A stretch of 64,000 bases of DNA from Bilabrum cf. latius (taxonomy: Eukaryota), in the NCBI GenBank assembly GCA_965178125.1, contig OZ237757.1, forward strand, positions 930,001 to 994,000, given 5' to 3'. Below, one piece after another: positions 9,299-64,000 of the stretch. The notes under the pieces are model-generated. The model was not told the origin of the DNA. It was given only the letters and a program-made list of their open reading frames with translations, and ran no database searches. The position numbers and the translations under genes were made by a program. The number at the start of each line of letters is the position of its first letter. Position 1 is the stretch's first letter.

Positions 9299-9477
9299 CG
9301 GACAGCCCCGAGGATTTGTACTCCCGGTTTCTTCTTGGATCGGATCAAGGGCACAATCGGCAACCAGCGCCGCAACGTGGCGAGATCCTGCAGTGACGGC
9401 CTTTCGCCGCGAAAGGAGGGCAGAGCGCAGGAGTCCTTTGCTCTGCGAAGACAAAAGCAAATCACGTCATGCCGCAT

Positions 9478-18652: not shown

Positions 18653-19434
18653 GGTGCACTTGATGTTATTTCCCGATTGTGTAGGTGGTATTTGTGAGCA
18701 GTCACAGCCGGTCACTTCTTCATCGTCACAGTGTCCACGATCAGCTGACCTCGTGACGACCCTTGGCCAAACGCGCACATCCGAGGCAGAAAGCCAGTGC
18801 TTCCACAGCTTTTCTGCTACACCGGAGCCAGTTATGGTGGAGACGCCTGCCGAGCTACTCGGATCTTGTTGAACGCAGTACCACCGGTACCACCGGTTAT
18901 GCTAGCCCCACAAGTACTGGTAATTTTAGGCGAGTGGAACCAGTGGTACCACTGCACGAGCATGGCAGATCCGATTGCCGCGCGCTTGGGGGTGCTGCTA
19001 CCAGCTCACATCTGCTGCTAGCCGGGACGAGGCAGCCTCTCGCCAGGCCGGGAGCACAGCCGGCTGCTGGTGGTTGAGTCCCGGTGCCCCGCACTCATGC
19101 CCCCTTCTTTCCCACTTCCCTGATAAGAGAGACAGCCTCAAATCGGTCGATTTGGCCCAATATGTCCACCAGGCTGCAGACTCGGCTGCCGGTGCATGCC
19201 GTCGTGCGGTGCGCTGCTAGCTGTAACTGGCACGTGCTTGGGATTTACGATCGACTGGGCGTGGTGCTTCTCAGATGGCGGGTTCAGTGGTTTGGGATAG
19301 GAGTATCCGTGCTTTCGTAGCAACCCCTTACGGCCAAAGCGTCACTACTTGGGAGGTAAGGTGCACATACCGCATAACAATATAGTGTCGGTTGACGAGG
19401 CGGAATACCCGTACATCAGCATTATACCTTGGTC

Positions 19435-44471: not shown

Positions 44472-44901
44472 TCTGGTGAATAAGAACCTTCAAGACTTAG
44501 TGCTCATTCATCAACGCTTGAGCGCTCACGCGCATGCCACGCCATCACTATTTCCTACCAGTCCGAAATGACATGCACACTCAAACAAAATCCTACCGTT
44601 CACGACTATAAGTAGCACCCTGCCACCTGTACTGGCAGCCAGAACCAGCTACTGTCCTAAGTCCGCTGCGGGGAGTTAAAACAGTGTTGGGCACATGTCA
44701 GCCTCATTATCATGGAGTGCCCAGTCCAGCAAGGAGGCTCGTAGGCCAAGTCTACGGGAGGGTGTTATTTATCTTCTTCTTGAGAGTTCAACAGGTCGCA
44801 ACCTTTGCCTACCCGATACATAGATAGATAAACGATGGGGTTTCTTGATCTGAGAACAACACAAAGACAAAATTGTCTGTTAGACTGAAAAGGCTACTGC
44901 G

Positions 44902-45963
44902 ATGCTTATATTGTTGCTGGGATCGATTCAGCACCAATGTGGAGGTGGGATTTTGTCAAGGCTACTCTTGCTGCAAACTCACCAAGCTACCGGGGCTGTC
45001 GCAGTGTGTATTGCGGTGATTCTTACTCTTTGGTGGCAAGCGTACATGCTTGCTCGCCCAGAGTGCTCGCATCATGATGAGAATCATGCTCATTTGGCGT
45101 AGTCCATCCACTGGCATGCAACGAGCTACCGCCTCAAAACGCCATGCGTCGACGAGAGCCCTGCTCCATGGAACATGATATTGTTCCATATAGTATCATT
45201 GTGCGTTGTTTGTTTGGGGGCTGCAGGGGCAGGGCTGATTTTATTGTCTGGAGTGCTTGATCCGGGAATCGTTGAGGGTGCTATTGAAGGTCGACACATT
45301 GAACCTTCGATCCCAGCCATGCCTACAAGTGAATCCATGCCATTCTCCTCACGGGCGTTGAAGTCATTGCCGCGAAGCAAAGCTATAGATATTTAGAGGT
45401 GCCTCTCGAGTGCATGGAGCGACCAGTCGGGTGCGTCACAATCTGCGGACGCTGTTAGGCAGACTTTTCCGGCTGTGCATGATACAGAAGATGCCCAATG
45501 CTCCCACCAGGGCCCTGTCAAATCCAATGAAGCTTTTGAATCTCGCCGCAAGCTCGCAATGCAGCTGGACTGGGGCAAGGTTCCGTACAACGTGCCTGAG
45601 GCACTCCGCGGCCTCGTGCTGTTCGACCCGTCTCGCCCTGACGTGCTCTTAATCGGGGAATACAAGTTCTGCCGTACCTGCCGCATCTGGAGACCACCGA
45701 GAGCCGCGCACGACACCGGGCTTGATGTGTGCGTGCTTCAGCACGACCACTACTGCACGCTCATTGGCAACTCAGTCGGCCTGTACAACCACCCGATCTT
45801 CGCCGCTGCTGCCGTGTGCTCAACCGCCGGTACTGGTATCGGGGCTGTCCTAATTATCTTGCAAGCAGTATATAGCGCGATGGCCGCAGTGCGAGTCGCA
45901 GGCGGGCCGTCTTTGCTGATGAGTCCTTCCTTGCTGATGTCCCCCCGCTACGGTAATAAATAA
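44902..45963 (+). CDS. DHHC (DHYC variant) palmitoyltransferase, 3'-truncated by the virophage insertion
   Basis: Motif KFCRTCRIWRPPRAAH...CVLQHDHYCTLIGNSVGLYNHPIF. Two TAGs upstream. The frame runs into AT-rich DNA and stops after TM3. Confidence 0.8.
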
Positions 45964-46147
45964 ATTTATTCCCTTCGGTTAAGGAAACAAGTTTCAATAA
46001 TTACGTTCAGTCAGAGCTAAAGCTCTTCCCTCTCTCCATTCCTTTTCTCGCTAGTCGCTCCAAAAGTCAAGGTGATACTCTTCATACTGCTACTTCATAT
46101 AACTGCTTTATCCTTCTAATTATATAAAATCAATTTAATATAAAACT

Positions 46148-46276
46148 CTATACGATGACCATATCCATACTTTGGGTATATATTATAGTAAGTTCTAATC
46201 AAAACGTGGATGTAGCCCTCTTGTGAAGGTGTTATGGGACTCTAGCCATTTTCTAGCCAAAAGTTCCATCACTTTA
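46148..46276 (+). repeat. dispersed ~135 bp intergenic repeat, copy 1 (most diverged)
   Basis: TACGATG...ATATCCA...CAAAACGTGGATGTAG...CTCTTGTGAAGGTG...AGTTCCATCACTTTA. Confidence 0.85.
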
Positions 46277-46670
46277 TGGGACTCCATTATTCAACCTTCT
46301 AAACTACCTTCATTATACCCCCTTATCCTCGCTTATACCTTCACAAATGGAACAAACGCGCAACAGCAACTCGCTACACTCGTCATCGTCAAAATGAACC
46401 TGAACCTGAATATTGGAGTTCAGCATTTTTTAGGAAATACGAGGGTCTAACCAACAGGATTTAATATTGAATTTTAAGCCTTTATTAAGGGTGTATATGC
46501 TTAGGATATTACTTTATATAATAATCAATATAATTTTCACCATCCACAGGCGGTTATTGTGGGTTAGTCCATCAACTGAATAACGGTCGGGCACTCCTTT
46601 AAGTATTGGGCAAAATAAAATGGATTAAAGGCAAAATAATATAAAATAATATAAGATAATATATAATAAT

Positions 46671-47204
46671 ATGACGGTAGATTATAAAAACTCTAAAATA
46701 TACAAGCTCTATTGTGTTGAAGACCCTTCTATTTGTTTCATTGGGGGCACAGCTTAGACGCTATTATCCACGGTTAAAGCTCTTCATAAGCAAAGCAAAA
46801 AATTAGATACGGTAGAACGAAAAGGATTACGGACAACTTATGAGATAGAAATCTTAGAAAAGTATCCCTGTGAGTGTATCAATGAACTAAATAAACGAAT
46901 AGGTTATTGGTAGCAATAGTATCCATCTTGTATTAAGAAAAAATAGCCTAAAGTGAGAGATAGACATCAATATTATTTAGACAACAAAGACCATATTAAA
47001 AAAATGACTAAGAAATACAGAAAAGAAAACAAACAAAAAATGATAGAATACGACAGACAATACCGAAAGGATAACGAAGCCAAAATAAAAGCAAAAACCC
47101 AATGTCCTATTTGTGAGGCTGTTGTTAATAAATACAAGCTTAAGCAACATCAAGCAACGAAACAATGTCAAGCAATTAAAGCAAAATAGACGCCTAGCGA
47201 CTAA
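46671..47204 (+). CDS. GIY-YIG endonuclease-like protein 1 (degenerate) with C-terminal Zn finger
   Basis: SKIYKLYCVEDPSICFIGGTA(Q), LEKYPCECINEL, CPICE...HQATKQC. Five TAGs. Ends TAA. Confidence 0.8.
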
Positions 47205-47286
47205 ATATAAATTTATACATATCCATATATGTATATATTCTCATCGTTTTTTTAAAACTCAAAAATTATAACTTAGTATTATAGAT

Positions 47287-48057
47287 ATGAACTTTAATAA
47301 TTATGTCATTGAAAATCCCGTCCTAATGAAGCAGATTTATAAGGCTACAGACCATATTACGGATAATACGCAAAAAATTTTAGAGACCATTACTACGTAT
47401 GTAGATTTAGGTGGTAAGTTTTCAAAACCTAAATTAATTAATAAAAATATAGTTAGTGATATTAAAGAGAAAAAAGCCGTGAAAAAACCCAAGAAAGAAG
47501 AGAAACAGAAGACACAACACGATAATAACGACCAGCTTGAAATTAACCAAACATACATTCTAGATAAATTTAATGACTATAAACCACAGAATAATAAAAT
47601 TTATAATGATGTAGATGATTTACAACCGCCAGAATTAATTAGATAGACCGCAATAGATGAAAAATTAACCGGTATGGAGCCTGACAGTGAAAGTGAAATA
47701 AACAGCGTTAGTACCGAACAAGACTAGATAGAAGCAGAAACTGATGATGAAATGATACCTGAGGAAGAGAAAAAAATAATTGGAGACCTAGAAAGGCTAG
47801 AAGACGGAGACTATAGGTATAAAGTGTCCGTAAATGGAAATGATGTATTTTTTGGTGAAATTAATTTACCCGATGTAGAGGCTCTTAAGAAATAGTTTAG
47901 CCCTCGTAAATTACAAATTATGATATCAAAAATAAAAAGGAATTATAATATTAATAATAGCGATGATATAAACAGCCCTGAGTTTTGGAATAGCCGTGTA
48001 TATTTGACCCTTGATGTGAAGGCCGAACACGAAAAACTACAAGATATCTATAATTAA
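47287..48057 (+). CDS. hypothetical viral protein (256 aa) with an acidic middle region
   Basis: Open with TAG=Q (3 TAGs), ends TAA. The C-terminus resembles the C-terminal domain of 52177-52884. Confidence 0.7.
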
Positions 48058-48126
48058 AAGCCCCTACAACTTAATAAACGGGCTAGAATTTAATAAAATA
48101 TTTTAATATAACCGCTATATTAAAAT

Positions 48127-48260
48127 CTATACGATGGCTATATCCACAAATTGCGTATAATTATATAGTATTTCTAGCAAAACGTGGATGTAGGGCCTCT
48201 TGTGAAGGTGGTATGGGACCTTTAGATAATTTTTAAAAATAGTTCCATCACTTTAGAAGG
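48127..48260 (+). repeat. dispersed ~135 bp intergenic repeat, copy 2
   Basis: TACGATGGCTATATCCACAAATTGCGTAT...GCAAAACGTGGATGTAGGGCCTCTTGTGAAGGTG...AGTTCCATCACTTTAGAAGG. Confidence 0.9.
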
Positions 48261-48375
48261 TGTTAAAATACACCATTCATATCACAATCTATTTTTTAGG
48301 GCTAAATGGCAAAAATCACCTTTTACCTTCATTAATTATTATAGCCCCTTTAAGCCCTCTATAATTAAATATGGC

Positions 48376-48392
48376 GTTTAAAATAGTTTAAA
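48376..48392 (+). promoter_or_regulatory. candidate promoter motif GTTTAAAATRRYTTAAA
   Basis: The same motif sits 28-30 nt before the ATG of five viral genes. Confidence 0.6.
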
Positions 48393-48420
48393 AATATATT
48401 TCTAATAATATATATAGAAA

Positions 48421-51198
48421 ATGAATAATAAAAACCTCGTTAGTTTCCCCATCAAGCACAATCAAAAAATACCTGATGTTAAAAGCTGGCGATATCTCAC
48501 CAAACCCGAGCCTAAACGATTTAATAATCAGAATATGGCTATTATCACCGGAGAAATTAATAATATAACCGTGTTTGATATTGATTCATATAAATGGAGC
48601 GATAAGAAGGAGCATTTATTCATCAAGAAATTTTCAGATGACTTTGTGAAGCGGTTCAACACATTCACGGTTAAAACAGCGGGTGGAGGGTATCATCTAT
48701 ATTTTAAATATGATTAGAATATATTAACTACCACCAATAGAGATATTGACGTTGATATTAGGAATGATGGGGCTTATGTAGTGGCACCACCAAGTGGCAT
48801 AAATGGGTCAAAATACGAAGTTATTAATAATGTAGAAATAAAAAAATGTCCTAAGGAGCTTTATAAATTTTATGAAAAGTATATTATTAAATCCTCTAAG
48901 AAATCCAACGTAAAAGGGGCGAGTAAAAGGATATCAAAAATTGATAATCAAGATGTGAATAACTGTATGATGAAATTCATTTTAAATGGTAAAGACTGGT
49001 CAATTATATTAAATAGACTAGATAAGAAATATTTAAATAATTATAGTGATTGGTATAAAGCAACCCTAGCGAGTAAATATTTAGGATTTAAGAAGGAGTG
49101 GTAGGAGTGGAGCAAGAAGGGCAATAAATACGACTACCACAAAAATAACAAGGTGTGGAACTCTATCCATTATTTTGATAAGTTAAAAACCTTTAATTTA
49201 GTTAATTCAATAATTTAGAATGATAAAAGTTTAAAGGCATTTGTGAAAGATAAGTATATTTCAAAGTGTTATTATCGTCCTTATGACGAGAATATTAACG
49301 GGTATACAGAAATTAATAAACCTAAATTAGATGATATAGAGAAGCCCGAACGATTTTTTAAATATGAATATAATTATGTGGTAAAAAGTGATACAGGAAC
49401 AGGTAAAACAACAGCATTTAAGAAATACATTAAACAGGTTCAAACGCCGTTCTTATCCATTGTATCCCGTGTATGTTTAGGCACAGAGCAATACGAGAGC
49501 TTTTTAAATGAAGATATTAAATGTGAGTTCTACCAGAATAAAACTTTTGATTTTGGATAGTCTCTTATTATTACGCCGGAAAGTATCCCCCAAATTGTGA
49601 ATTATGATTTTTCTAAATACATCGTATTTTTGGATGAATTCAATAGCATTATAGAGCATATATTAAGTTCTACCACGATGAATAATAATAGGGTTCTTGT
49701 ATTATTTATTATTTTAAAAATGATAAGGACGTGTAAATAGTTTATTGCTGTAGATGCTGACATATCCCAGATAGCGATGAAATTTTTAAAATGTGCTGGA
49801 GTAGAATTTAGCTTCATTAAGAATAAATATAAGCATTTTAAGGACGTAAAAGTATATTTTGAAAAAGACCAATAGAAATTTTACGATAAATTAAAAAGTG
49901 AAGATAAATTTATACTGGCGTGTGATAGCAAGAAGAACGCAGATACATTTTATAAAATGTTATGTAAAGATGGTATAGAGGACGTTAAATTAATTACTAG
50001 TGATTTATTACCTGATGAGGATGTGAGCTTAGATAAATATGATAAAATTATATTTAGTCCTAAAGTCATTTACGGATTAGATAGTGTAATGGAGCGCCCA
50101 GTGTATGGATTATATAAAGGAAAAACGATTCTACCGCCGTAGATGATGTAGCAACTGGCAAGATGTAGAAATCCCGAATATATGAATATATATTTTGAAG
50201 ATGTAAAATCCATTTATCCAAGATATGAGAATTTAAAGGAGGTATAGACGACCTTAAATATGGAAATTAACGCATAGACAGATTTATATACTAAATTAGA
50301 AAAATACGAAAAAAGGATAATGTAGGAGAATGATATTGACATTGATATTTTTGAGGGAGAAGATGATGAAGAGATAGCCCATAAAGCAATGATAGAGGCA
50401 TCATATAAGGTTTATTTACCACTCAAGAAATTATATAATTTCAAATGTGATACATACGAAACAAATAAATATATTCATTTATAGCTTATTCTTAAAAACA
50501 GGGGTGCCGATGTATAGGTGGATAAGGAATTACCACAACGAATGAATAAATAGCAGATGAAAGAGGCGACAATGGAGATACTACAAGAAAAGATTGATTC
50601 ATTTGATGTAGAGAACGACCATATAAAAAGAAGAATTGAAATTTTAGGGCTACCAGAGACAGCCATAACGGAGGATATTAAAATGTTATTAATTGATAAT
50701 TACAAATTAATGAATTATTTTAATTATGCTAATTTCAAGAGAAAAGATAAATATAAACTAATGACAGAATTAAAGGATAGAAAGGATTTTAAGGATGAGA
50801 AAGCAAAAAGTACAAAGAATAAAATAATCATATTGTAGGAGATGTTATAGACGCTTAAATTGAATAAATTTGATTTAAGTTATACACGTAAAAATGAGAA
50901 ATCCATTAAATATATAGAAATGGGTAAAAGATATGTAGAAGTAAGCGGGGCGAGATTATAGAAGCCAATAGAAACCGATAGTGAATTACACGGGGCAATA
51001 GTAAAATTATATAAGTAGTTATTTGGAAATATTAAAACCTCTTGGAGTATGGGAAATAAAAAGGATAAAAAGGATAGAGAATTAAGAATTAAATTCACCA
51101 AGGAGAAAGAATTATTTGATGAAGTTTATAAATATTAGTATCCCGAAATGAAGGACGTATACAAGGAATCCAACGAACGATTAGATTAGAATATTTAA
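48421..51198 (+). CDS. primase-polymerase + PriCT-2-like domain + UL9/OBP-like SF2 helicase fusion (925 aa, 20 in-frame TAG)
   Basis: Prim-pol motifs VFDID, TAGGGYHLYF, DIRNDGAYVVAPPS. PriCT-like W(Q)EWSKKGNKYD. Helicase motifs KSDTGTGKT, FLDEFNS, FIAVDAD, (Q)MM(Q)QLARCRN. No TAA or TGA until 51196. Confidence 0.88.
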
Positions 51199-51212
51199 TA
51201 CCTTTTTTATGT

Positions 51213-51229
51213 GTTTAAAATAACTTAAA
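51213..51229 (+). promoter_or_regulatory. candidate promoter motif GTTTAAAATAACTTAAA
   Basis: Ends 28 nt before ATG 51257. Confidence 0.6.
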
Positions 51230-51256
51230 CATTATATATTTATATAATATATAGTG

Positions 51257-51559
51257 ATGAGCGATATTTAGAGTTCAAGCAATACATAGGAACAACCAAA
51301 AATTAATTATATGTAGGAATATTACAAAACAAACAAAGACAAATGGAATAAAAAATATTTAGCTAGAGGAAATGAAAAAGTTAAATGCGATGTGTGTGAT
51401 TGTTATTATAGAAGGAAGGACAGAACGAGACACGAACGAACGAAGAAACACCAAAAAAATCTCAAAGAACCAAAAAAGGATATACTAGAGGAATATATCA
51501 AGAAACTTAATCAAACCCTGCTTAATAGCGGGATTAAACCACCGGAGATATCAATTTAA
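51257..51559 (+). CDS. small C2H2 Zn-finger protein (100 aa), absent from the ORF track
   Basis: KVKCDVCDCYYRRKDRTRHERTKKHQKN. Three TAGs. Ends TAA. Confidence 0.75.
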
Positions 51560-51601
51560 ATTTATCTATTTATTTATTTTTTTTATAAATAAAAAGATTT
51601 T

Positions 51602-52123
51602 TCAACCTTTAATAACCATCCAATTAGCCGACCAATCATTAGAGGAATTACCACCCGTTAAATGAATCGTAAATCCATCGGTTCCTGCTACTACGTGGGA
51701 AAATTCAACCGGCTCACTGGCGGGGGTGATTGTAGTAATAAAAACCAAATCACTAGAAGTCATACCCGGAACACTAGCAAATTCAGTAGCACCTCCACCA
51801 CTCCAATTTACCCTTCCTTTATGCGCTACGGTGTTATTTGCTACTACTTCACCTTTTACGGTTAAATCACATTCGTGACCGTCTTCATCAAAACTCATAA
51901 CTAAACCAGCAGATGCGGTATTGGCACCGAATCGTAAAGCTTGACCCGAAGTGATGTAAGAAATACCCTTACTGTCAAGATGTAATCCTGCGTTGCTAAC
52001 AACTACATCACTACTATTCACAACAGCATTTACATATAGACCACTACTATCTAATCTACCAGTTGCGACATTCTTACATTGAATAGATATATCATTAGGT
52101 TGCGATAATCTTGCTAAGCTCAT
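51602..52123 (-). CDS. beta-rich hypothetical protein, possibly a structural fibre/spike
   Basis: 173 aa ORF rich in G/S/V/T, unlike the Lys-rich non-structural genes. Ends TGA. Confidence 0.55.
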   Translation of the reverse strand: MSLARLSQPNDISIQCKNVATGRLDSSGLYVNAVVNSSDVVVSNAGLHLDSKGISYITSGQALRFGANTASAGLVMSFDEDGHECDLTVKGEVVANNTVAHKGRVNWSGGGATEFASVPGMTSSDLVFITTITPASEPVEFSHVVAGTDGFTIHLTGGNSSNDWSANWMVIKG

Positions 52124-52176
52124 TTTTTGTATATATAAATAAGAGAAAAACTAAAACTTATATCAAACCTATAATA

Positions 52177-52884
52177 TTAAACTTTCATTAATTTTTTAGC
52201 TCTATCTACGGCGTCCATAAAGCTATCTTTTAATGTTGGTTCATTCCATAATACAAACCTAGACCAAAAAGCGGGGGATTTATAGTCTTTAAAGTCTTCA
52301 TTTATTGAATGTCTTTTAATATAATTTTTCTTTTTACGGTTTGCTTCCTTCTCTCCATCTTTATTATAATATTGTATAAAGTCCATATAAGGGGTACCAT
52401 CATTCTTAATTCCACCAAAATGAACAGTAAACAGAATATTATTACCTTGAACTACTTTAATCATATATTTTTTATTTGATTTAGTTGATTTATATAAATT
52501 AAAAACTGGTTTAGGTCTAAATGATTTCACGTGTCCGTTATTAAATTTTTCCTTCATTGCTTCCTCTATTTCTTCCGTGTCTAATTCTCCAAAGGTTAAA
52601 GGGGTCTCTTTATTTATTCTTTTAGTGGGTCTATATATATCTCCTTTTTCCTAATATCCCTTTTCTCCCTTCTAATTCTTCCAATCCTCTAATTTCCACC
52701 TTCTTAAATTTTTCTATGCTTCATTTAATTTAATTTTATCATATGTCCCCCCTAGTTTTTTATAACGAGCAAAATATGCTAATGAACGATAAGCTGAAGG
52801 CTTTTTATACGTTCTATTTACTTTCTCAACTGCCTGACGCCATAATTTAGGACTATTAACATAATTAGGTATATTATCATTCAT
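52177..52884 (-). CDS. two-domain protein of the kind seen in giant viruses and phages (DUF5872-like + DUF5754-like)
   Basis: N-half: YKKPSAYRS...YKKLGGTY...LRRWKLEDW...YRPTKRINKETP. C-half: KKYMIKV...VHFGG...YIKRH...SPAFWSRFVLW. Three TAGs. DUF names are from memory and unverified. Confidence 0.65.
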
Positions 52885-52892
52885 CTATATAA

Positions 52893-53051
52893 TTAATAAA
52901 ATGATAATTTTTTAATTGCGTGAGCCGTTTTCTTTCTATATTCTTCATAGAGTCTTTTATTATTTGGATTCTTCATTAATTTATTTTTTACCTTCTTTAA
53001 TGCCTTCTTAATAGCATACTAAACAAAGATATTACTAATAATATTAATCAT
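52893..53051 (-). CDS. small basic hypothetical protein (52 aa)
   Basis: ATG after a TATA-rich leader, one TAG, ends TAA. Fills the intergenic gap. Confidence 0.4.
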
Positions 53052-53078
53052 ATATTATATAATTAATAAATATTTAAT

Positions 53079-54578
53079 TCAAAGCATTAAACCGCCTTTT
53101 TTTCCTTTCCTTGATATAATTTCTTCTTTTTCATTTACGACCATTAAATCATTCTATCCGTGGATAATTAATTTCTATCCTTCTTCATTAATCTATTCTT
53201 TTTTATATTCACCTAATTCTTTACCTACTTTAAAATTTAATCTTTTGTTAAATGTGATACTGTCGGTGTGAATTCGTATAATATGTTTAGCGTTGTTCTT
53301 ATTCACTTTCTTCATCAATCGTTGTCTTCCATATGCCAGAATAAAAGGTTTCAATTTTCCCCAGCTATATTTAAAGGGTACTTTATGTTTCAAATGATAA
53401 ATAAATTCTCCGTCATTATCCATTTCTACACGGTCAATATCAAATTTATCTATATTTATTTTTTTATCGTCTTTTGATGTAATTGTCTTTTTAGAGGAAC
53501 TACATAATTTACCCCATAATGAATTTAATATTTCTTTTGCTAGATATGATTTGCTTTTTAATTTGTAGAACATTGAGACATAGGATTTAAAAAGTGTTTC
53601 ACTTTTGATATATTTATCATAGGTCATAAAATTAAATTCGTCGCTTGACATCTCTATCTCACAACCATATTTAACAAACATATTCATATCTGTAAAGACA
53701 TAATAAGTAAATTCATTTTCAAATACCTTCATCATTTGAAAGATATTCGGGTCGCATTTTCCACGGCTTACCTTACATTTATAAATCCCTATTTCGTTTT
53801 TATTATTTATATATTTATTATCAATTGTTTTATAAATAGGATTTCCATATGGTAGTAGTGAATTAGATGACATAATGGCGGGGTAATGACTATTTATATC
53901 GTAGGTGATAAACTCCTCATATTGTCCCTTCTTGTGATATTGAATCCCGCCACGCGTTGAACCTTCAATAAATACCGCTTCCTCTGGGGTTATATCTGGT
54001 GGGCTATCTATCATCATATTAAACATTGTAAAGAAATGAAGGGCTGTTTGTCTGATTCCATATTTCATTACATCTAATGATGGGTTCTCGTCGTGTAATT
54101 CATCACTTGCTATACTCAGCCTTAAGCTCCATTCTTTGATATCTTCATCCTCTGGGCATTCGTGAATGGTGTAATGAAGATAATATTTCTTTGAATGATA
54201 ATCGGTCAGGCTCTCAACTCTATATTTATCTTTTTCAATTATTTCGGCTTTATCGGTTAATTTAACAACCATAGATTTATGGCACCGCACAAATAAAGGT
54301 TTCATCCTCTAGACGGCTTTAAATGAACCATCTTTATATTCTAAACAAACCCTTTTAAAACTCTCTTTTTTCCTACTTAGATAATAGACCTTTATATCGT
54401 CTTTCTCTCTAATCTCTATATCCATTTTTAGACCTGAAACAAGTTTATAAAGGTTCTTTGTAGTTATGGGCTTACCGTTAAATACCTTTTCTAGATACTT
54501 CACGGATTGAATGGGGTTATCATACTTTTTACCAAAGCATATATTTAATTGATTTAACACATTTTCGTAATTTATCAT
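53079..54578 (-). CDS. polB: family B DNA polymerase, protein-primed type, compact (499 aa)
   Basis: Motifs STRGG, YDINSHYP, KEILNSLWGK, AYGR, RIHTDS. ORFs 54309 and 53193 are joined by TAG. Ends TGA. Confidence 0.85.
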
Positions 54579-54607
54579 TTCCTATAGTATATTATATTTA
54601 ATATATT

Positions 54608-54624
54608 TTTAAGCCATTTTAAAC
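54608..54624 (-). promoter_or_regulatory. candidate promoter motif GTTTAAAATGGCTTAAA
   Basis: Ends 30 nt before the polB ATG. Confidence 0.6.
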
Positions 54625-54656
54625 ACATATTATAAAGTTTAAATTATAAAATGTAA

Positions 54657-55001
54657 TTATTGTTTCGGAGCAGTGAGGATTAATATAAATCTCTTCACTT
54701 GCTCATCGCTTAAGAAGGTATAACGAGAAGAAGGACTGAATAACATTACATCATCCTTTAATTTAAATGGTGAACCAGTTCGCCAGCCTATGGGGTAGAG
54801 AGAGCTAACATACGCATCATAATTCTTTAAATGGGGCTTTTGTTTTAATAACCTCTAGATATATTTTTTTAATAAAGTCTTCATTTCTAAATCATTATAT
54901 CCATTATCATTTTCACGAAGAGGGAACACAAAATTATATACGGGCTTATTGTTTTTAACAAGTTGAGTTCTAACGATTTGAATATCACTTAATTTAACCA
55001 T
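54657..55001 (-). CDS. hypothetical viral protein (114 aa), absent from the ORF track
   Basis: MVKLSDIQIVRTQ...LILTAPKQ, one TAG, ends TAA. Confidence 0.6.
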
Positions 55002-55050
55002 TTTTATATATATAACCTATAGATATTTTATTTTTAAGCCAAATAGACGC

Positions 55051-55067
55051 GTTTAAAATGACTTAAA
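55051..55067 (+). promoter_or_regulatory. candidate promoter motif GTTTAAAATGACTTAAA
   Basis: Ends 29 nt before ATG 55096. Confidence 0.6.
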
Positions 55068-55095
55068 GATTTTATTTTATTATAATATATATAGA

Positions 55096-55641
55096 ATGTC
55101 AAAATTTTAGAGTTATGAACCAAGCGAATTAATGGAACTTTTAGAAGAGGGAGCCATAAAGAAAGCCAAGAAATATATTAATCAATTCTTCTTTAAAACT
55201 TTTAAAGGGATATTTTTTAATAATACCGTAGAAGATAAATTTGAACTGGTGGATGAAGACGAATTGAATGGTTTGTATCTAACCCCTGATATGAAGACCG
55301 ACAGCGCCAAAAATCCATTTGTTCCATACATTTATATGTTTTCCAGTGAGCCCCCGATTTATTATACAGGAGATTTTGAGAGTAAAGACCCCATAATGAC
55401 AATTAAAAAGAAGGACAAACCCATCAAATATATTAATTTGTCATACGGTCAATTTATACCCGATGAAGTAGAGGAACCAGAAGAAGAAGAAGAACCAATA
55501 AGACCCAAGAAAAAGACTAAGAAGAGGAACAAGAAGAAACAAAAACGTGATAATAATAGAAATGTTGAGAAACCAGATGATGAAGATGATGATGAAGAAG
55601 CCTTTAGAGAGCAACTTCAAGAAGCATTAAAAGATTTCTAA
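55096..55641 (+). CDS. hypothetical protein with an acidic/basic tail (181 aa)
   Basis: Track ORF 55132 extended upstream through one TAG to ATG 55096. Ends TAA. Confidence 0.7.
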
Positions 55642-55759
55642 ATAATTTAATATTTATACTAATATTAAATATGATATCTTTATTAATAGTTGAACACCTT
55701 GACCATCTAATAAAAGGGCTAGAATATTAAAATATATATGGTTATCTCTATAATAAAAT

Positions 55760-55892
55760 CCATACGATGGCTATATCCACAAATTGCGTATTAGTATATG
55801 TATTATTTAGCAAAACGTGGATGGATTAGTTTTATGAAGATGATTTGATTGATATCGTATTTCTAGCCCAAAAGTTCCATCACTTTAGAAGG
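55760..55892 (+). repeat. dispersed ~135 bp intergenic repeat, copy 3
   Basis: CATACGATGGCTATATCCACAAATTGCGTAT...GCAAAACGTGGATG...AGTTCCATCACTTTAGAAGG. Confidence 0.9.
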
Positions 55893-56033
55893 TTGTAATA
55901 TAGCCCCTTCTAACTCCCATCATCAATATGTTAAATATTAATTTTATCATTAATATCTAATTATTATTTACCAATATGACATTTATAACAAATTGAATAT
56001 TTCATATCTTTAATTCTAGACACTCCGCATTTT

Positions 56034-56681
56034 TTACACGCCTTTTTCAGCGAGGTTTTTACATTTTTGAGAACTTTGGTGGCGTTTCACCCCGTATTTA
56101 CCCACAATAGAGCCACATTTCGGACATTTGGTCTTAGCTTTTATGTATTCCATTATTTTATCTTTATTGTCTTTAGCATACTATTTTCTATACAGGGCTA
56201 TTTTTTCCTTATTTTTCTATTTGTATTTTTGTTTATATTTCAATACTTTATCTTTGTTTTCTTCATTCCATTTTTTATTAGCTTTATCAACTTTATCTTT
56301 GTTATCTTTTTTCCACTGTTGGTTTGATTTCTTTACCTTTTCTTTGTTATCTTCTCTCCATTCTTTGCTTGTTCGTCCTGCTATTACCCTATTTACACAA
56401 TCGGGGTATTTTCTCTACCATTCTCCTTCTCGTGCTCTTAATTCCTCTACACAACTACAAGGATACTTCTCAAGTAGCTCAATGACAGGGGTTCCTGCTT
56501 CAATAACTTTGAAACTAGAACAATATGTATACTTACCATTTGAATATCTCTTATAATTTCCCTCGTGTCCTGCTTTTCGGGATGATAGATAAATTTGAGC
56601 TGATGAACCTATATAGAAGATTGATGGGTCTTCTTTACAATAGAGCTTGTAGATTTTTCCATTTTGATAATTTACTGGCAT
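56034..56681 (-). CDS. GIY-YIG endonuclease 2 with helical repeats and C-terminal Zn finger (215 aa)
   Basis: GKIYKLY...FYIGSSAQ...RKAGH...ELLEKYPCSCVEELRAREGEW...CVN, and KCPKCG...RHQSSQKC. Three TAGs. Ends TAA. Confidence 0.88.
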
Positions 56682-56928
56682 TATGTTATTTTATATTCTT
56701 TTATGTTATTTTATGTTTAAGTCTTTTTATTAGTATTATTAAATTAAATAGTGGAGATTTATATATGATGAGTGAAAAGGCGGTTGGTAGTGATTGGAAG
56801 AAGAAGAAAGTATCCACATTAAGACACAGTTTTGGGGAAAAAGGCATATAGGCGGGATTAAAAAAATATGGATGATTATAATAATTAATATTATTAAAAT
56901 ATTAATTAATTAGACCGGTTAAATAGTT

Positions 56929-57061
56929 CTTTGGAAAGTATGAACCTACTTTGAAAAGTATGAACCAACTTCGGAAAGTATGAACCTACTTTGAAAAGTG
57001 TGAACCTACTTTGAAAAGTGTGAACCTACTTCGAAAAGTATGAACCTACTTTGGAAAGTAT
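56929..57061. repeat. 20 bp tandem array (TGAACCTACTTTGAAAAGTA), 6 full units plus a partial, each with a mini-hairpin
   Basis: Directly visible, non-coding, upstream of GIY-YIG 2. Confidence 0.92.
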
Positions 57062-57112
57062 CATTCACAGGTCATATATTTATTTAATATGTATAAATAA
57101 ATAATAAAATGA

Positions 57113-57403
57113 TTATCTTGCCTTATATAATTGAATGGGTTTCTTTTCTAATAGACAAACAGCCAAATAATGAAGTACAATGTCATCATCTCTATACTTA
57201 TTCCTCGTCTATATAATACATTTATAGGTTGAATATTTGAGATATAATAGCTTCTCTCTACTGTCTTTTTTTAATTGATTGGTGATTTCTTTTACCTAAT
57301 CACTGTTTGTAAAAATTACGGTCAAAACTCCATCAATTTCTGTCTGGATATAGACATCGTGTGTAGGCGGTAGATTCTCAATAATTTTATTTAACTTTTC
57401 CAT
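57113..57403 (-). CDS. hypothetical viral protein (96 aa), absent from the ORF track
   Basis: MEKLNKIIENLPPT...IQLYKAR, two TAGs, ends TAA. Preceded by the shared motif. Confidence 0.6.
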
Positions 57404-57431
57404 TTGATATATATTAGTTAGTTAATATATA

Positions 57432-57448
57432 TTTAAGTCATTTTAAAC
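57432..57448 (-). promoter_or_regulatory. candidate promoter motif GTTTAAAATGACTTAAA
   Basis: Ends 29 nt before ATG 57403. Confidence 0.6.
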
Positions 57449-57450
57449 GT

Positions 57451-59340
57451 TTAAGATGTGCTTAAAAGGGCCTCGAGATCTTCCCCACGCATAGCCTAGC
57501 CACCACGCATCGTAAGTTTTCCACCAAGCTTATTCAATTCTCCTCCACTATTTCCATATCCATAATGTGCCGCCGCTTTGCCAATAGCGCTATTGTCTCC
57601 TGTTAGACTTTTGAGTGGTCCTATATTCCTAATGGTTTTCGCTAGGTTTTTAGCCTAATCACTTTTTGCCCAATCTTTAACCTGATTCCATCCGTGTTTA
57701 AAGGCTCGTCCAATCTTAGACCAGAAACGACCTTTTCCACCCATAACATTAGCATAATTATCTAAATCCTCAAATACAGGCTAGAAACCTTTAGAACCAC
57801 TTTCAGCATCACCACGTTTAGCAAGTTCAGAAAGCACTTTAGAAGGCTCAATAAGGGCGCCAGCCTCAGTATAGACACCGTTATCATTCACAAGAACATT
57901 ATCATAAAACATCCATACTTTTATCTCGTATTTATCCTCATACGCACCATCCGCATATTTATTATAAGGGTTGAAGCACTGAAGATTAACTTTAAGATTA
58001 AATCCAGTATTTACATTAGATTGAACACCAGCAAGTGTAGCAACATCTGAAGGTTTTAAAATCATATAGCAACCAGTACCGCGGTTTCCATCACTTCCAT
58101 CAATTGATGAACCATAAAAGGATGAAGGAGGAAGAGCATATCCGTTCTTTCTACTAATTCTATATAATTCGTGTGGATTATCTACAGCCCCTAATTCCTC
58201 AGCGCTTCCATTGAGTGAGAAACCTATTCTTCTAATTGGTAAAGTTCTATTAGCCCAGTTAGGGTTATCATCACAACCAACAAGGCGGGCACATACCATA
58301 ATAGCACTAGGGATACCATTCTCACGGGATAATTGATAATCAAAAGAAGTTAAAGAATTTTCAGTTGCGGATTTAGGTACAGGGACAGGCGCCTAAGACT
58401 AAAATTTAATTGTAGGCATATTATACATACAACGAGTCGGGGGGGCGTATCCACTCTAAAATTCAACTTCATCAACAAGAAGGGTCGTATTTGTTTCTCC
58501 TATAATTGACTAACCCGTTATTTTGTTAATATCTCCGTTATCTTTTGTAAAACTAGCCTTACACAGTCTTTGAATGGCATTTACGTGATAATCTAAATCA
58601 ACCTGAAGGCTTCTCACACCGGTGAAATATTTAGCATTCACATCAACATCTGCTCCTTTTAGTGGTATAGCTTCTTGAAAATCAATAGTCCAATCAATTT
58701 GGTCTCTATTACCCGCAACGAAATCAGCATTTACAGTCGTAAAAGCATTCCCATATGCTCCACGATAACTAAAGCTATCACCGGCACTATATCCAACATC
58801 CTAACCCCAAGCTAAAGGATTTTTAAGGGTATCACTTACTTCACGATAATCACCAACAGTGTCAGGGCGTCCAACGGGTGAGATTGTGGATAAGGTTTCT
58901 TCACTGTTCATAACTTCGGTAGGTTCAGCCCATTCATAAACTTTTACTGTAAAAGGCTATCCATTAATTGTTAAAACACCACCTTGAAGCATTTTAAAGG
59001 TAGGTAATGAATTAGTTCCAAACCTAGATTTAAGATAAGATTGAGCGGTAATAGCATCACCTCCAGCAGTTTGAGCTGGCACTGCTTGCTCTAGTTGTAG
59101 CCTAACTGTCATACGATGACGAAGACGAATAAACCTTGATACGGTTTTACTAGTAGGATTAACGGGGAAAGAAAGGGGAAGAAGAGAATTAGATTGATTA
59201 GATGATGGTCTAATTTCTCGGCGGGTATATTTTTGAACACCTAGTTCTGTTCCTAAACTAGCATCTTCAGGGGTTATCATTTGAAGGCTTTTAGGAGCCT
59301 TAATGCTTACTGGTAAATTCTGAACCATTTGTTGAGCCAT
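57451..59340 (-). CDS. virophage major capsid protein (629 aa, 9 in-frame TAG)
   Basis: Size about 600 aa and position after the penton. LTING(Q), GIPSAIMVCAR, ELYRISRKNG. C-terminal MGG followed by a basic amphipathic segment and GYG/GG motifs. Ends TAA. Confidence 0.85.
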
Positions 59341-59411
59341 TTTTTTATATATACACTATAGATATAAATTTTTTAATATCTAAACATATTTTATAATCTT
59401 CTATAATTTAT

Positions 59412-60365
59412 TTAAAAATCTAAACTTAAATTATCGGTTTGTTTTTTAAATACTTGTTTAATGTGAGCTTCACCCCCGTTAAAATTCATTACGGGATACT
59501 TTTCATTTTGTTTATCAACCCAGTAGAACGCCATTGACACGCTCTTAAAGCTTCTATCCTTCATCATTGAATACCAGCGGTAAGGATTAGAAACATATAA
59601 TATATTTTCTATTGGTGAGCTGTCATTAGGATTATACGGGTAGCTGGTTAATATAGGGGATTTATTGACGGCTATAGAGCCACCAGTAGATGATTTTGTG
59701 GTCACCAATTCTTTATTCACTGGAATATCACTTTCTACGATAATAGATTTAACAGGGCACCAAGAATTTAAATTCGTCTATCTAGCCATAAAAACATAAT
59801 CACCACTAGCAGGGGAATTATTATATGAAAGTTTAGCAAATAAATCACTCGGTGTGGTTGTTATTCCTTCATATTCAAATTTATCAAATAAAGCAAAAGC
59901 TTCAAAATTAACAAATAAATAATAATTATCTCTAAAATCTTCAGTTGTTGATAAACTCCATTTATTATTTTCAAATTTAAAGACTGGTTTATCACCACTT
60001 GGAAGGCTTACCAAATCACAAATTCGGCTTAACTCTTCATTAAATTCATTTACAATATCCTAATATGAATAATAAAATTTAGCTTTTTTACCTAGAACTA
60101 TATAATCGCCTGCTCTGGCTCCTGATGTTTTATTCTCAAGAGTAAATTTTAAATAGGTTTTACCGCTGTCATCCTAATATTCAGGTTTAAACACCGGTAG
60201 CATAAATTTATTTAAATCCATCTCTTCAACAGCCGTTAAATAATTTTCACTTTGTTTTAATATTAAGCCTTCACGGGTTTCATTCACTACCGCCTATCTC
60301 GTCTAATTGTGGGGGACAGATGAACTAACTAAATTCAATCTTACAAATTCATCGCTATAACTCAT
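59412..60365 (-). CDS. virophage penton / minor capsid protein (317 aa)
   Basis: NETREGLILKQSENYLTAV...LPVFKP, WCPVKSIIVESDIPV, YRWY...FYWVDK...YPV...KQVFKK. TAG-joined. Ends TAA. Confidence 0.85.
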
Positions 60366-60499
60366 TTTATTTATATATTAAAGCTATACAAATAAATATT
60401 TATTAATAAACCTTATCTAATATTTCACCTTGATTTTTACCCTTCACTTTTACCAATATATTTAAAAGTTTGATTGAATTTAGATGGATGAAAAATAGC

Positions 60500-60634
60500 C
60501 CTTCTAAAACGATGGAACTTTTCTAAATAAAAGGGCTTATATCTTCATTTCACCTTCACAAGAGGCCCTACATCCACGTTTTGCTAGAAAACACTATAAT
60601 ATATACGCAATTTGTGGATATAGCCATCGTATGG
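60500..60634 (-). repeat. dispersed ~135 bp intergenic repeat, copy 4 (inverted)
   Basis: Reverse complement closely matches copy 2. Confidence 0.9.
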
Positions 60635-60684
60635 ATTTTATTTTAGAGATAATCATATTTTATTATTTTATTCTAGCCCTTTTA

Positions 60685-61425
60685 TTAGAAGGGCGGGGTA
60701 TTCAATGTAGAAGCAACGCCTTGTTTTTTTTCTCTGTATACTTTATTTCTTTCCTTTATGGCTTCTTTATTATTTTCTCTATATTTTCTTTCATATTCTT
60801 TAATTTTTTCTTTATTCCTTTTTCTATACTCTCTCTTCCTCTATTTGATTCTTTCTTTGTTTTTTAAATAGTATTCCTTTCTCTTCTGTTTCAGCTTCTC
60901 TTTATTATCCTCCTAATACTTCTTTATTCGTTCCTTGTTGTTAGCCATGTATATTCTGTTCTTTTCGCGTAATACCTCTTTATTTTTCTCTCGATAAGCT
61001 TTACTTTTTATTTTAATAGCTTCTTTATTCATTTGATGATGCCGTCTTGACCTCTCTTTTTCCTTCTCCTAATTATCTATGTAATACTCCTTGTCGCTTC
61101 TTCCTGCTACATATTTATTAACACAATCTAATTTTTTTATCCACTCCCCTTCTCGCTTATCTAGTTCCATTTTAGATTGACATGGATACTACTCAATTAT
61201 ATCAATTCGGGCGTCATCATACTAAAGGACTGTAAAAGAGGTATATTTGGTTTTAACTTTACCTTCGTCAAATCTTTTTTTATGTGTTCTATGTTGTGCG
61301 AATCGTCGTGCTTTTGTCTATGTTGAAGAACCTATATATTGTACATTTTGTGAAGGAGACCATATTTTATATATTATGCTCTTTGAATAGTCAGGCTTTT
61401 TTTGTGCTTTCGTTTTATTCATCAT
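60685..61425 (-). CDS. GIY-YIG endonuclease 3 with Lys/Glu-rich helical repeats (246 aa), absent from the ORF track
   Basis: SIIYKIW...QYIGSST(Q)...RFAQH...YPCQSKMELDKREGEWI...CVNK. Six TAGs. Ends TAA. Confidence 0.88.
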
Positions 61426-61496
61426 TGTACTTATATATACTTATTTATATAGTTTCTATTTAAACCTGTTTTTTTTTTAGTCTTTATGTGTAAAGC

Positions 61497-62072
61497 TTAA
61501 TGTAATAGTAATGCTACTAACTAATCAGGACTAAGAGCCATTACCTTAGATATCCTAAACATTTCATTTACAAACTAATCATTTGATAAGAAAGAAAAAG
61601 CGTTTCTTAATAGAGCCCATCTTCCACACGTAGCGCTGTTGTTAGCATAACTCTAAATCGGTTTATGATTATAATCAATTTTCCAGCCTTCCATTTTCTA
61701 ATCAATTAAATACTTTACCAGCGTATTTTCTTCTCCTTCTCCTTGATACAATTGGTCTCTATTAATAAATGGTTTCTATTGGTCGGGTTTTTCTCCATAG
61801 CTATCAAAGAAGTATATTATTTTGCTTGATGGTTTTCTGGTCAATGAAATGAAATGACCGTATGTGCTATTTAGTCCCGTCTTTTTATTAGGATAATAAA
61901 TAATTACGCCGTCATAACCATCAAAAATATGTTCAATAGATGAGGTCTATTTAATAATATCATCGTAAATAACTATTCTAGGTTTGTAATTCAAATGTGC
62001 TACACCTAATTTTTGAATTTCTAAAGGAGATAACGGTGTTTGGACTAGTCTATTTAAGTCGTTTATGTTCAT
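61497..62072 (-). CDS. virophage maturation cysteine protease (adenain/Ulp1-like, 191 aa), absent from the ORF track
   Basis: Catalytic motifs YGHF (His), FFDSYG (Asp) and YNHKPI(Q)SYANNSATCGRW (oxyanion Gln and Cys). Ends TAA. Confidence 0.9.
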
Positions 62073-62080
62073 TTATATAT

Positions 62081-63151
62081 TCAATAGAGAAATATTTTTT
62101 TTGTGCTAACTACATAATTATTATCAACATTAATAGCAACATAACCAAAGAGAGGGAGAGAATGAAGGGTTTTTTTAATTCGTTTTCTAGTAGGAGCGTC
62201 AAAACTTAAGACTGTTTCTAAAATATATTTTAAACTTTTAGCTGTAATTGTTTTATAAATGATATGGGTTGTAATTTCGTTCATAATGGTTCGTGTCTTC
62301 ATACCGTCGCTTATTTTGTGGGTGATGTCTAAAACGCTACTTGCTGTGTGCCTTCCTGTAGTTGCTAGGATTTCCAATAAAAAATAAGCCTTTGCTTTCT
62401 GGTTCCTTTTTTTAAAGCCTTCGTAATCATCCAGAATAAATAAATTAGGTTCAGCGGTCAATTTTTTAAAAAACTCAACATTTAATTTAAAACCTTTTTC
62501 TATTAAATCTTTCTCAGGTTTCAAATCCTCTATCTTTCTTTCAGCTTCAATAACAACATCTAAAGGTTTAGATTTCATCAAAGAAGATTTCTTATATTTA
62601 AATTCTAATTTCATTTTTTTATAATAAGCCATTTTTTCCTTATATAAAGTGTTTTCATTCTCTTTAACCAAATCATCTATATCAATGAAGGTCGCGCCTT
62701 CTCTTTTATATTTAGGGTCTTGAATTGGTGATATAACATACATATTTTTATATTTTAATCCTCTATACATCCTTATATAATGTAAAGCTAAATGACTTTT
62801 CCCGCTTCCACTCTTACCAAATAATCGCACATATTCACGCCCCTATGGAAAGAGCATAGGAAAAGGTAAATATTGACTATTATCTTTAATCGCAAATTCC
62901 TAAACTGACCGTATATATTCATCTTGTAATAGTTTATGTAATTGTTCCCTTTTCTTGTCCTTATCAACGTTATATCTTACTCGGCTTTCTCCGTAATAAG
63001 ATTTTAAAACATCATCTGTTATCTCTTCCGCTTTGACGTGTTGAATATCTTTAGCGTTCGGGTCGTAATAAATAAACCGGTTCTATTGTGTTTTTTTGTA
63101 TTTTTGAATAGCTACAATATGGCTATTTTCCGTATATTGTAAAGATAGCAT
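62081..63151 (-). CDS. FtsK/HerA (A32-like) genome packaging ATPase (356 aa)
   Basis: Walker A GKSGSGKS, Walker B FILDD, TTGRH, ITH, TRTIMNE. Extended upstream through 3 TAGs. Ends TGA. Confidence 0.9.
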
Positions 63152-63243
63152 TATATATAATAATAAAATAAAATAAACCATTTATTCACACGGGTTTAAA
63201 ATATTAAGTTGGTTCCTTCTTCTATCCTTCCTCACAAAAAAAG

Positions 63244-64000
63244 TTATAGAGACATAATTATATTTTTAATTTCCGCCCGTGTTTTCCTATTTATGTATTG
63301 GTCAATCCACGATATTATCTTATTAATATTTGCTTTAGAATACTTTGAAAATTGTTTTATTATTTCCACATTTCCTAATGCTTTTCTCATTAGTCCTTTT
63401 AGGCTTTGAAATGATTTTGACTTCTCGCTTTGATGTCCTTTTATTCTTAGCATACTTTCTAATCGCATTCTTATGGAATATAAATATCCTAATGCTTCCC
63501 TATCAATTAAATCATTGACTCTTTTTTCATTCCTCTTCTCACCTCTTAATTTAAATAAATCCTTCAATCGTTTTAATACTTTAAAATTATTAGAACCAAA
63601 ATATTTATCTACATCTCTTATTAATCCATCTTTTACCTCGTCCTAATCTATTTCATAATCACTTATATGATAAATTATGCTTATTTCATCTATAAATTTT
63701 CCATCAAAAGCCCAAAAATCAATTTTTAAGTATGGTTTATCTCCGCTAAATATCTATTTATAAATGGTTTTAACGGGTGTAGATATGAATGCTTTTATGG
63801 TCTTGTATTTTTTATTACCAGCTTTAACCTCAATAAAATTAACCTAACTTATAAAAACCTTTACAAATCTTATTAAACTATTTATAAATTCAGGCTCTAC
63901 CCTCTAATATAAATCTATATCACTAGCAAACAAGGAATAATAAGGAATAGCATACGAACCATTTAAAAATAAATTAGCCCCCTTCTTAAAATTCACCTCA
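63244..64000 (-). CDS. nucleotidyltransferase-fold protein (possibly Sputnik V21-like), 5' end outside the window
   Basis: LNGSY...ASDIDLY(Q), FIEVKAG, YLKIDF. Frame open to the window edge with TAG=Q. Ends TAA. Confidence 0.6.

Follow-up and report, generated by a model that had tools for sequence, protein, structure and literature searches.

An endogenous mavirus-like element with in-frame TAG codons predicted to encode glutamine in the protist Bilabrum cf. latius

Can a virophage integrated in a eukaryotic genome follow the non-standard genetic code of the cell that carries it? The question is raised by a 64,000-nucleotide stretch of the Bilabrum cf. latius assembly GCA_965178125.1 (contig OZ237757.1, positions 930,001 to 994,000), hereafter the window, numbered from its first letter. 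An earlier note made from the letters alone had described an AT-rich element starting at ~45,941 as an endogenous virophage that has adopted the TAG = Gln code of its host. We find that the element is very probably a mavirus-like virophage provirus in a GC-rich, intron-poor, TAG-sense protist, with all of its genes in a code in which TAG specifies Gln and TAA and TGA are stops.

The GC content is 53-72% from position 1 to ~45,950 and 28-35% from there to 64,000. The step is sharp: the sequence and a 100-bp GC profile place it within ~45,940-45,960, where the border had been drawn. The element is at least 18 kb long, its right end lying past the window limit at 64,000. Open reading frames (ORFs) were defined as TAA- and TGA-free stretches. 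Re-prediction with TAG as sense, as had been suggested, yielded 17 ORFs in 46,671-63,999 that cover 86% of the DNA, and the TAG columns of the helicase and protease alignments are consistent with Gln. Under the standard code, ORFs of at least 100 amino acids (aa) account for 42% of the element; when TAG is taken as sense, they account for 88%. These reading frames can be regarded as real, because the alignments of the helicase, the penton protein and the major capsid protein (MCP) with homologues extend over nearly their whole length. The features on which the argument turns are the following.

45941-46670, no strand: left junction and non-coding terminal region, with the GC drop and copy 1 of a repeat at 46,117-46,302
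46671-47204, plus strand: GIY-YIG-like gene 1, 177 aa, 5 TAG; tblastn match to the GIY-YIG-like ORF of the metagenomic relative L001, no Pfam match of its own
48421-51198, plus strand: primase-helicase, 925 aa, 20 TAG; Pfam Prim-Pol (7.2e-16) and PriCT_2 (3.2e-6)
53079-54578, minus strand: 499 aa, 4 TAG; divergent protein resembling family-B DNA polymerases, pPolB-like only in its motifs
56034-56681, minus strand: GIY-YIG-like gene 2, 215 aa, 3 TAG; Cys-rich segment at the C terminus; tblastn match to the L001 ORF at 8.5e-23
57451-59340, minus strand: mavirus-like MCP, 629 aa, 9 TAG, including a C-terminal tail region; phmmer match to PDB 6g45
59412-60365, minus strand: penton (minor capsid) protein, 317 aa, 5 TAG; PDB 6g41 and Pfam V18-19
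60685-61425, minus strand: GIY-YIG-like gene 3, 246 aa, 6 TAG, between the protease and penton genes
61497-62072, minus strand: clan-CE-like cysteine protease, 191 aa, 6 TAG; alignment A3 of 8 sequences
62081-63181, minus strand: P-loop packaging-type ATPase, 366 aa, 3 TAG; motifs in the translation, PHROG 2666

The 4,972 codons of the 17 ORFs include 78 in-frame TAG and no internal TAA or TGA. This lack of TAA and TGA is not a matter of chance, because the off-frames of the same genes hold hundreds of them (192 and 398 TAA, 101 and 253 TGA). TAG is found in 16 of the 17 ORFs, in the replication and capsid modules alike, and the counts first given for the 925-codon helicase (20) and the MCP (nine) were exact. 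All genes end in TAA (14) or TGA (3), in agreement with the initial description. That 0 of 17 stops are TAG is not significant alone, as TAG makes up 65 of 651 stops in relatives (P = 0.17).

We next consider the residue that TAG specifies. In a Codetta-like test, a hidden Markov model was built from 149 helicase homologues, the query excluded, and emission log-odds were summed over columns for each query codon. TAG (17 aligned codons) was assigned to Gln with a posterior of 0.978; as a control, the method recovered the right residue for 28 of 28 other codons with n>=8. At helicase position 577, a TAG, Gln is present in 146/146 homologues, and at position 440, another TAG, in 82/149. The share of Gln among homologue residues is 0.143 in the TAG columns of the helicase, 0.213 in its CAA/CAG columns and 0.024 elsewhere, and the two closest homologues have Gln at 9 of 36 TAG cells and 8 of 28 CAA/CAG cells. 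TAG 140 of the protease aligns with Gln in 7/7 homologues and corresponds to the invariant Q139 of alignment A3, which precedes the catalytic Cys. A penton relative from another assembly (P0160, 94% identical) has E, Q, Q, Q and Q at the five TAG sites, although its Q codons may be TAG themselves. Judged from these alignments, TAG encodes Gln in the element, with TAA and TGA as stops (as in NCBI table 15), and on this central point the posterior and the two invariant columns bear the original proposal out.

Some observations nevertheless pull away from a Gln assignment. The runner-up in the helicase test is Lys, with a log-odds of 5.1 vs 9.2 for Gln, followed by Glu, and most TAG columns are variable among homologues. 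Codon 81 of GIY-YIG-like gene 1 (46911-46913) and codon 89 of gene 2 (56415-56417), both in a TGG-TAG context, align to Ile in 4/4 and 9/9 homologues, respectively. TAG codes for Leu, Glu or Tyr occur in other eukaryotes. One might thus propose that TAG is sense and read as another residue (Lys, Glu, Leu or Tyr), or read ambiguously, in line with the Lys and Glu scores, with the two paralogous TAGs at a conserved Ile and with the E at one TAG site of the 94%-identical penton. Given the posterior for Gln, the Gln found in 146/146 and 7/7 homologues at the two invariant columns, and TAG columns that act like CAA/CAG columns, we regard this as very improbable. The third GIY-YIG-like paralogue and all aligned homologues have Trp-Ile at the shared TGG-TAG site, which the Gln reading leaves unexplained.

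The codon counts bear on another possibility, that of a decaying, pseudogenised provirus whose TAGs are C-to-T lesions of CAG, arising for instance by deamination of methylated DNA. The Gln codons of the element are 78 TAG, 102 CAA and 18 CAG, which gives TAG a share of 39% (78/198). Rare CAG and common TAG are what CAG>TAG decay predicts, and GIY-YIG-like gene 1 appears degenerate. The same decay would convert CAA to TAA and CGA to TGA; the genes nevertheless retain 102 CAA and are free of in-frame TAA and TGA. The explanation fails because C-to-T change would also create TAA from CAA, and none is present. TAG also stands at Gln positions that are invariant in catalytic sites or motifs, in-frame TAG is present in host genes as well, and there are no frameshifts, residues 5-924 of the helicase aligning to a 933-aa homologue. 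We give decay almost no chance of being correct and return to TAG as a functional Gln codon.

Does the host read TAG in the same way? The GC-rich part of the window encodes ordinary eukaryotic proteins (VPS9, ABCC transporter, GH3, Tsr3 and DHHC), among them the following.

3749-9466, minus strand: ABCC-type transporter, one 1,905-codon ORF with 17 in-frame TAG, the strongest sign that TAG is sense in the host
10708-17505, minus strand: further example of a long host ORF
19396-22008, plus strand: further example of a long host ORF
44854-45963, plus strand: DHHC palmitoyltransferase ORF, 3 TAG; Pfam DHHC 2.1e-16

Nine host ORFs contain 51 in-frame TAG in 10,109 codons, and their off-frames hold 137-161 TGA. 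The ABCC ORF can be aligned with ABCC proteins of known structure over the two membrane domains and the two nucleotide-binding domains, all four in one frame, and the N and C domains of GH3 share one frame only across TAG. Because of these 51 codons and of the ABCC and GH3 frames that span TAG, the host can be said to read TAG as sense. Host ORFs end in TGA or TAA, and the status of TAA as a host stop rests on few cases, because TAA is rare in every host frame. The claim that the element's code matches that of its host therefore holds for TAG as sense; as to the residue, the TAGs of ABCC and GH3 fall in unconserved columns of the PDB alignments and are uninformative. In addition, no tRNA gene and no Rfam match were found in the window. 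These two points detract from the case for a shared Gln code. The host genes are largely intron-free by appearance, in DNA of 55-70% GC, and a TAG-only reassignment in a GC-rich protist may be of interest by itself.

Under a shared code, the mRNAs of the element would be translated by host ribosomes, with a TAG-reading tRNA and a modified termination system supplied by the host. TAG would therefore carry no cost for an element translated by host machinery. Strong AT pressure would then have made TAG the second commonest Gln codon of the element; the TAG share of 39% in the element vs 11% of Gln-type codons in the host (51/464, nine ORFs) fits AT pressure on a codon that is free to use. The share of 39% also points to long residence in TAG = Gln hosts. 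In any standard-code cell the proteins of the element would be truncated, and it could probably be expressed only in cells with a TAG = Gln code.

As had been foreseen, standard gene calling breaks such genes: the protein library contains the helicase as a 107-aa fragment. This standard-code fragment (P0150) stands beside P0153, the full 499-aa PolB-like protein with Gln at the TAG sites. The two readings differ, and the pipelines must therefore have called element DNA under different codes.

What kind of virus does the element represent? Its penton protein matches the mavirus penton (PDB 6g41, E 2.5e-24) and Pfam V18-19 (29.2 bits, cut-off 27). Residues 92-620 of the MCP align by phmmer with residues 82-598 of the mavirus MCP (PDB 6g45, E 2.4e-8), and its match to Pfam MCP_V20_C is below threshold (17.2 bits vs 27). 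A check against virophage capsid profiles, which had been proposed, thus succeeded for the penton and fell short for the MCP. No MCP relative was detected by word-indexed protein search, and the sole homologue found is the mavirus chain in the PDB. An AlphaFold model of the MCP from its single sequence (pLDDT 37) was too poor for a fold search. In protease alignment A3, whose homologues come from seven virophage-like contigs, H72, D89, Q139 and C148 are invariant; the protease profile gave only sub-threshold clan-CE matches in the PDB (poxvirus I7 and SdeA, E 0.2-0.4). The ATPase translation shows GKSGSGKS and LFILDD, which we take to be Walker A and Walker B motifs. It matches PHROG 2666, 'terminase large subunit' (E 1e-6), and its homologues lie near protease genes in five related loci. 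The genes are ordered ATPase-protease-penton-MCP (63,181->57,451, minus strand), with one GIY-YIG-like gene inserted between protease and penton. Apart from this insertion the mavirus block is as first described, and ATPase-PRO-PEN-MCP is the mavirus gene order (Hackl et al. 2021, PMC8547959).

The primase-helicase has 3,977 homologues at E<=1e-3, the best of which is 50% identical across the full length, and the Pfam Prim-Pol and PriCT_2 domains agree with its first annotation. The PolB-like protein has seven homologues, one of which (P0158) reaches PF03175 at 26.1 bits (cut-off 25.8). In alignment A1, D226, K347, G355 and H436-T437-D438-S439 are invariant, and the conserved stretches YDINSxYP, KEILNSLWG and HTDS resemble, in our reading, motifs A, B and C of family-B polymerases. 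An AlphaFold model built with the seven sequences (pLDDT 47) was too poor for a fold search. The pPolB annotation thus stands on motifs and on the transitive PF03175 link through P0158, and falls short in that the gene itself has no match; its relationship to pPolB is the weaker for being transitive and motif-based.

Against assignment to virophages, the protease has no Pfam match above threshold, the ATPase has none in Pfam or the PDB, and the same is true of the PolB-like gene itself; PDB sequence searches with these three proteins gave no significant match. By its capsid genes, as compared at the sequence level, we assign the element to the mavirus-like virophages, class Maveriviricetes.

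Is the element integrated at this site? The host DHHC ORF retains profile positions 4-73 of 133 and stops just inside the AT-rich border; the gene was probably interrupted by insertion of the element, as far as the truncated frame can tell. Further information came from public runs, available as contigs only and under coded names, for which contig depth is a weak measure; the uncovered parts in runs X5 and X7 were left out of the interpretation. No RNA run containing the element was found among them. In organism A, the depth of the host-flank contig is 65 in X1 and 91 in X2, and that of the helicase, MCP and penton contigs is 564-787 and 1,079-1,276, respectively. The MCP and penton contigs of X1 have depths of 704-787, and the contig with GIY-YIG-like gene 3 has a depth of 89.5. 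Contigs bearing the GIY-YIG-like genes of this copy have depths of 90-150, near the host flank.

Several of these data disfavour a simple integrated copy. Element contigs have ~9-14 times the depth of the host-flank contig, and none among the contig pieces listed spans the host-element junction. No integrase family was matched (Pfam, PHROG) among the ORFs of 45,941-64,000, the right end being outside the window. For the same reason terminal repeats could not be paired, and no second terminal repeat or target duplication is visible within the window. The AT-rich block might therefore be a free or episomal virophage, or a copy from another locus, that the assembler joined to the host contig. The depths, the many rearranged joints and the unspanned junction all fit such an artefact. 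We consider it unlikely, since the block lies on a single contig with a sharp junction exactly where the host DHHC ORF is truncated. Moreover, the depth of 90-150 for contigs with this copy's GIY-YIG-like genes is consistent with a single chromosomal copy among several, the code is common to host and element, and a host of 70% GC is well known to carry low-GC endogenous elements of the mavirus type (PMC8547959, 10.1101/751586). As no listed piece spans the junction, the case for integration is made by the assembly, the truncated DHHC ORF and the shared code.

Because element contigs have ~9-14 times the depth of the host flank, free or multi-copy forms are indicated alongside the integrated provirus. 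From the depths, the core element may exist in some ten copies or free forms, few of which carry the endonuclease insertions. Under a second organism label, from another study, a helicase contig shows seven differences in 3,038 bases (~99.8% identical). Together with the multi-copy state, this identity would fit a recent, possibly particle-borne spread.

How would such an element be mobilised? We infer its dependence on a helper giant virus from family membership; giant-virus genes are absent from the window. Any helper in this host would have to avoid TAG terminators. Virophage capsid genes could also serve an integrating virus or transposon of the Maverick or polinton kind, able to do without a giant virus. 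Neither a helper virus nor any sign of one was seen, and the element is apparently multi-copy. There is no enrichment of TCTA, taken here as the core of mimivirid late promoters: 4 of 16 upstream regions contain it, with 0.295 expected per region. A different conserved upstream motif, GTTTAAAATNNNTTAAA, is present instead, in five exact copies vs 0 expected from shuffles, as listed here.

48376-48392, plus strand: GTTTAAAATNNNTTAAA, upstream of the primase-helicase
51213-51229, plus strand: GTTTAAAATNNNTTAAA, upstream of the 101-aa ORF
54608-54624, minus strand: GTTTAAAATNNNTTAAA, upstream of the PolB-like gene
55051-55067, plus strand: GTTTAAAATNNNTTAAA, upstream of the 181-aa ORF
57432-57448, minus strand: GTTTAAAATNNNTTAAA, upstream of the 96-aa ORF

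The copies lie ~25-45 nt upstream of these gene starts and probably represent a shared promoter element, as their placement suggests. The motif has no match in relatives L001-L005 and only single, chance-like matches in IMG/VR. A polinton-like lifestyle has a small but appreciable chance of being correct. It is at odds with capsid proteins that are specifically mavirus-like, with a gene set that parallels that of low-GC endogenous mavirus-like elements (EMALEs; PMC8547959) and with the reactivation of EMALEs by a giant virus in Cafeteria (PMC10945749). We retain a virophage, putatively helper-dependent, as the preferred interpretation.

To place the element among its relatives, we collected 81 helicase-bearing loci, 76 from IMG/VR and five metagenomic. 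They fit the standard code, with a median ORF coverage of 0.89 to which TAG as sense adds a median of 0.006. Because this is true of all 81, the recoding appears peculiar to the present lineage among the sampled loci. The capsid genes have no close relative in IMG/VR (scans with P0001 and the penton), and tblastn of the penton against the phage collection gave no match. The nearest retrievable helicase relative belongs to a JGI metagenome virophage (L001/L004), whose primase-helicase is 44% identical over 894 residues. It shares with the element a GIY-YIG-like gene, a packaging ATPase and the penton family, but it uses the standard code and has Sputnik-type MCP domains and an integrase with rve and chromodomain. 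The L001 MCP gave no tblastn match to that of the element, so that the nearest relatives of the replication module are not those of the capsid module.

Mavirus and the EMALEs of Cafeteria burkhardae share with the element homologous penton and MCP genes and the ATPase-PRO-PEN-MCP order (PMC8547959). Low-GC EMALEs also have a primase-helicase alongside a pPolB or pPolB-like gene. They too are low-GC inserts in a GC-rich, gene-dense host; the present element, of ~30% GC in 55-70% GC DNA, is seemingly multi-copy (both comparisons PMC8547959). Mavirus and EMALEs differ in using the standard code; the term 'stop codon' is absent from the EMALE paper (PMC8547959). The element departs from them in its very divergent MCP (E 2.4e-8), its three interspersed GIY-YIG-like genes and the lack of an rve integrase in the 18 kb seen.

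Ciliate Tlr/Maverick elements use the ciliate code, and TAG recoding in phages has been proposed to time late-gene expression. crAss-like and other phages with TAG = Gln recoding, 'code 15', resemble the element in having the same codon with the same meaning in a virus (PMC9523058). The code of these phages differs from that of their host, whereas the element shares its host's, with TAG in 16/17 genes. The closest precedent is that of polinton-like viruses integrated in Streblomastix strix, which use the TAA/TAG = Gln code of the host and from which the authors infer a long association (Bellas et al. 2023, PMC10120064). As here, a virus of the polinton/virophage supergroup follows its host's non-standard nuclear code in an integrated state. 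The S. strix viruses differ by a polinton-like MCP of the Metamonada group, an oxymonad host and the reassignment of both TAA and TAG (PMC10120064). The element has a mavirus-type capsid and TAG alone reassigned, with TAA as main stop (14/17).

Novelty is accordingly narrower than first suggested: no report of a TAG-recoded virophage was found in full-text searches of the literature, but integrated viruses that follow the host code have been published (PMC10120064). The supplementary tables of that paper and of PMC12220804 (Codetta results) may list more. A Halocafeteria virophage preprint of 2026 is silent on genetic codes. The present case would extend code tracking by integrated viruses from polinton-like viruses to a virophage-type element, and to the rare TAG-only reassignment. 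New here are the virophage-class capsid, the TAG-only code with TAA as main stop, and the heavy use of TAG among Gln codons. The locus also illustrates a blind spot of virus discovery, given its 42% standard-code ORF coverage and the lack of MCP relatives in the word-indexed search.

One prediction is that a giant virus mobilising the element must function in a TAG = Gln cell. Whether the whole three-way system runs on TAG = Gln, including a TAG-compatible or TAG-recoded helper giant virus, is more doubtful, and we put it forward tentatively. Were this true, a recoded nucleocytovirus would be known for the first time, and the range of hosts open to eukaryotic DNA viruses would be bounded by the genetic code. 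The element offers a natural system for asking if the genetic code limits the host range of such viruses.

The remaining features of the element are mostly ORFs of no assigned family.

47287-48057, plus strand: ORF of 256 aa, 3 TAG, no known family
51254-51559, plus strand: ORF of 101 aa, 3 TAG, no family assigned
51602-52123, minus strand: ORF of 173 aa, 0 TAG, GC 0.40, TGA stop
52177-52884, minus strand: DUF5872 protein, 235 aa, 3 TAG; Pfam PF19197 at 7.9e-21
54657-55001, minus strand: ORF of 114 aa, 1 TAG, no family assigned
55096-55641, plus strand: ORF of 181 aa, 1 TAG, with an acidic/basic tail
56929-57061, no strand: intergenic tandem array of the 20-nt unit CTTTGAAAAGTATGAACCTA, 6.7 copies
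57113-57403, minus strand: ORF of 96 aa, 2 TAG, no family assigned
63244-64000, minus strand: ORF truncated at the window end, at least 251 aa, 4 TAG

The DUF5872 protein has homologues in 6/81 related loci. The PHROGs added little for the ORFs of the element beyond the ATPase match and that of GIY-YIG-like gene 2 to PHROG 7091, 'HNH endonuclease' (5.3e-6). The tandem array is located upstream of the 96-aa ORF and the MCP block. The 173-aa ORF, with its GC of 0.40, is the sole ORF of the element devoid of TAG; no homologue was found, and it may be a recent acquisition.

Gene 1 is the shortest and most diverged of the three GIY-YIG-like paralogues, and the L001 ORF that links them to this family itself matches PF01541 weakly (E 0.0021). 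A repeat of ~190 bp occurs four times in the element (46117-46302, 48091-48281, 55690-55913 and, inverted, 60505-60705), each copy adjoining a GIY-YIG-like gene. A joint between 46,029 and 48,140, seen in contigs of both X1 and X2, reveals forms that lack GIY-YIG-like gene 1 and the 256-aa ORF. The endonuclease genes resemble cassettes that move or recombine and that vary from one copy of the element to another.

Lastly, the public runs revealed variation around the insertion site. In organism A (X1, X2, X5 and X7 compared), the host flank at 44369-45800 exists in two versions of similar depth, one identical to the window and the other ~10% diverged, which suggests two divergent haplotypes or paralogues. 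The diverged version is the only one in organisms B and C. In organism C, positions 46,045-46,361 of the terminal region of the element are present, together with none of its genes.

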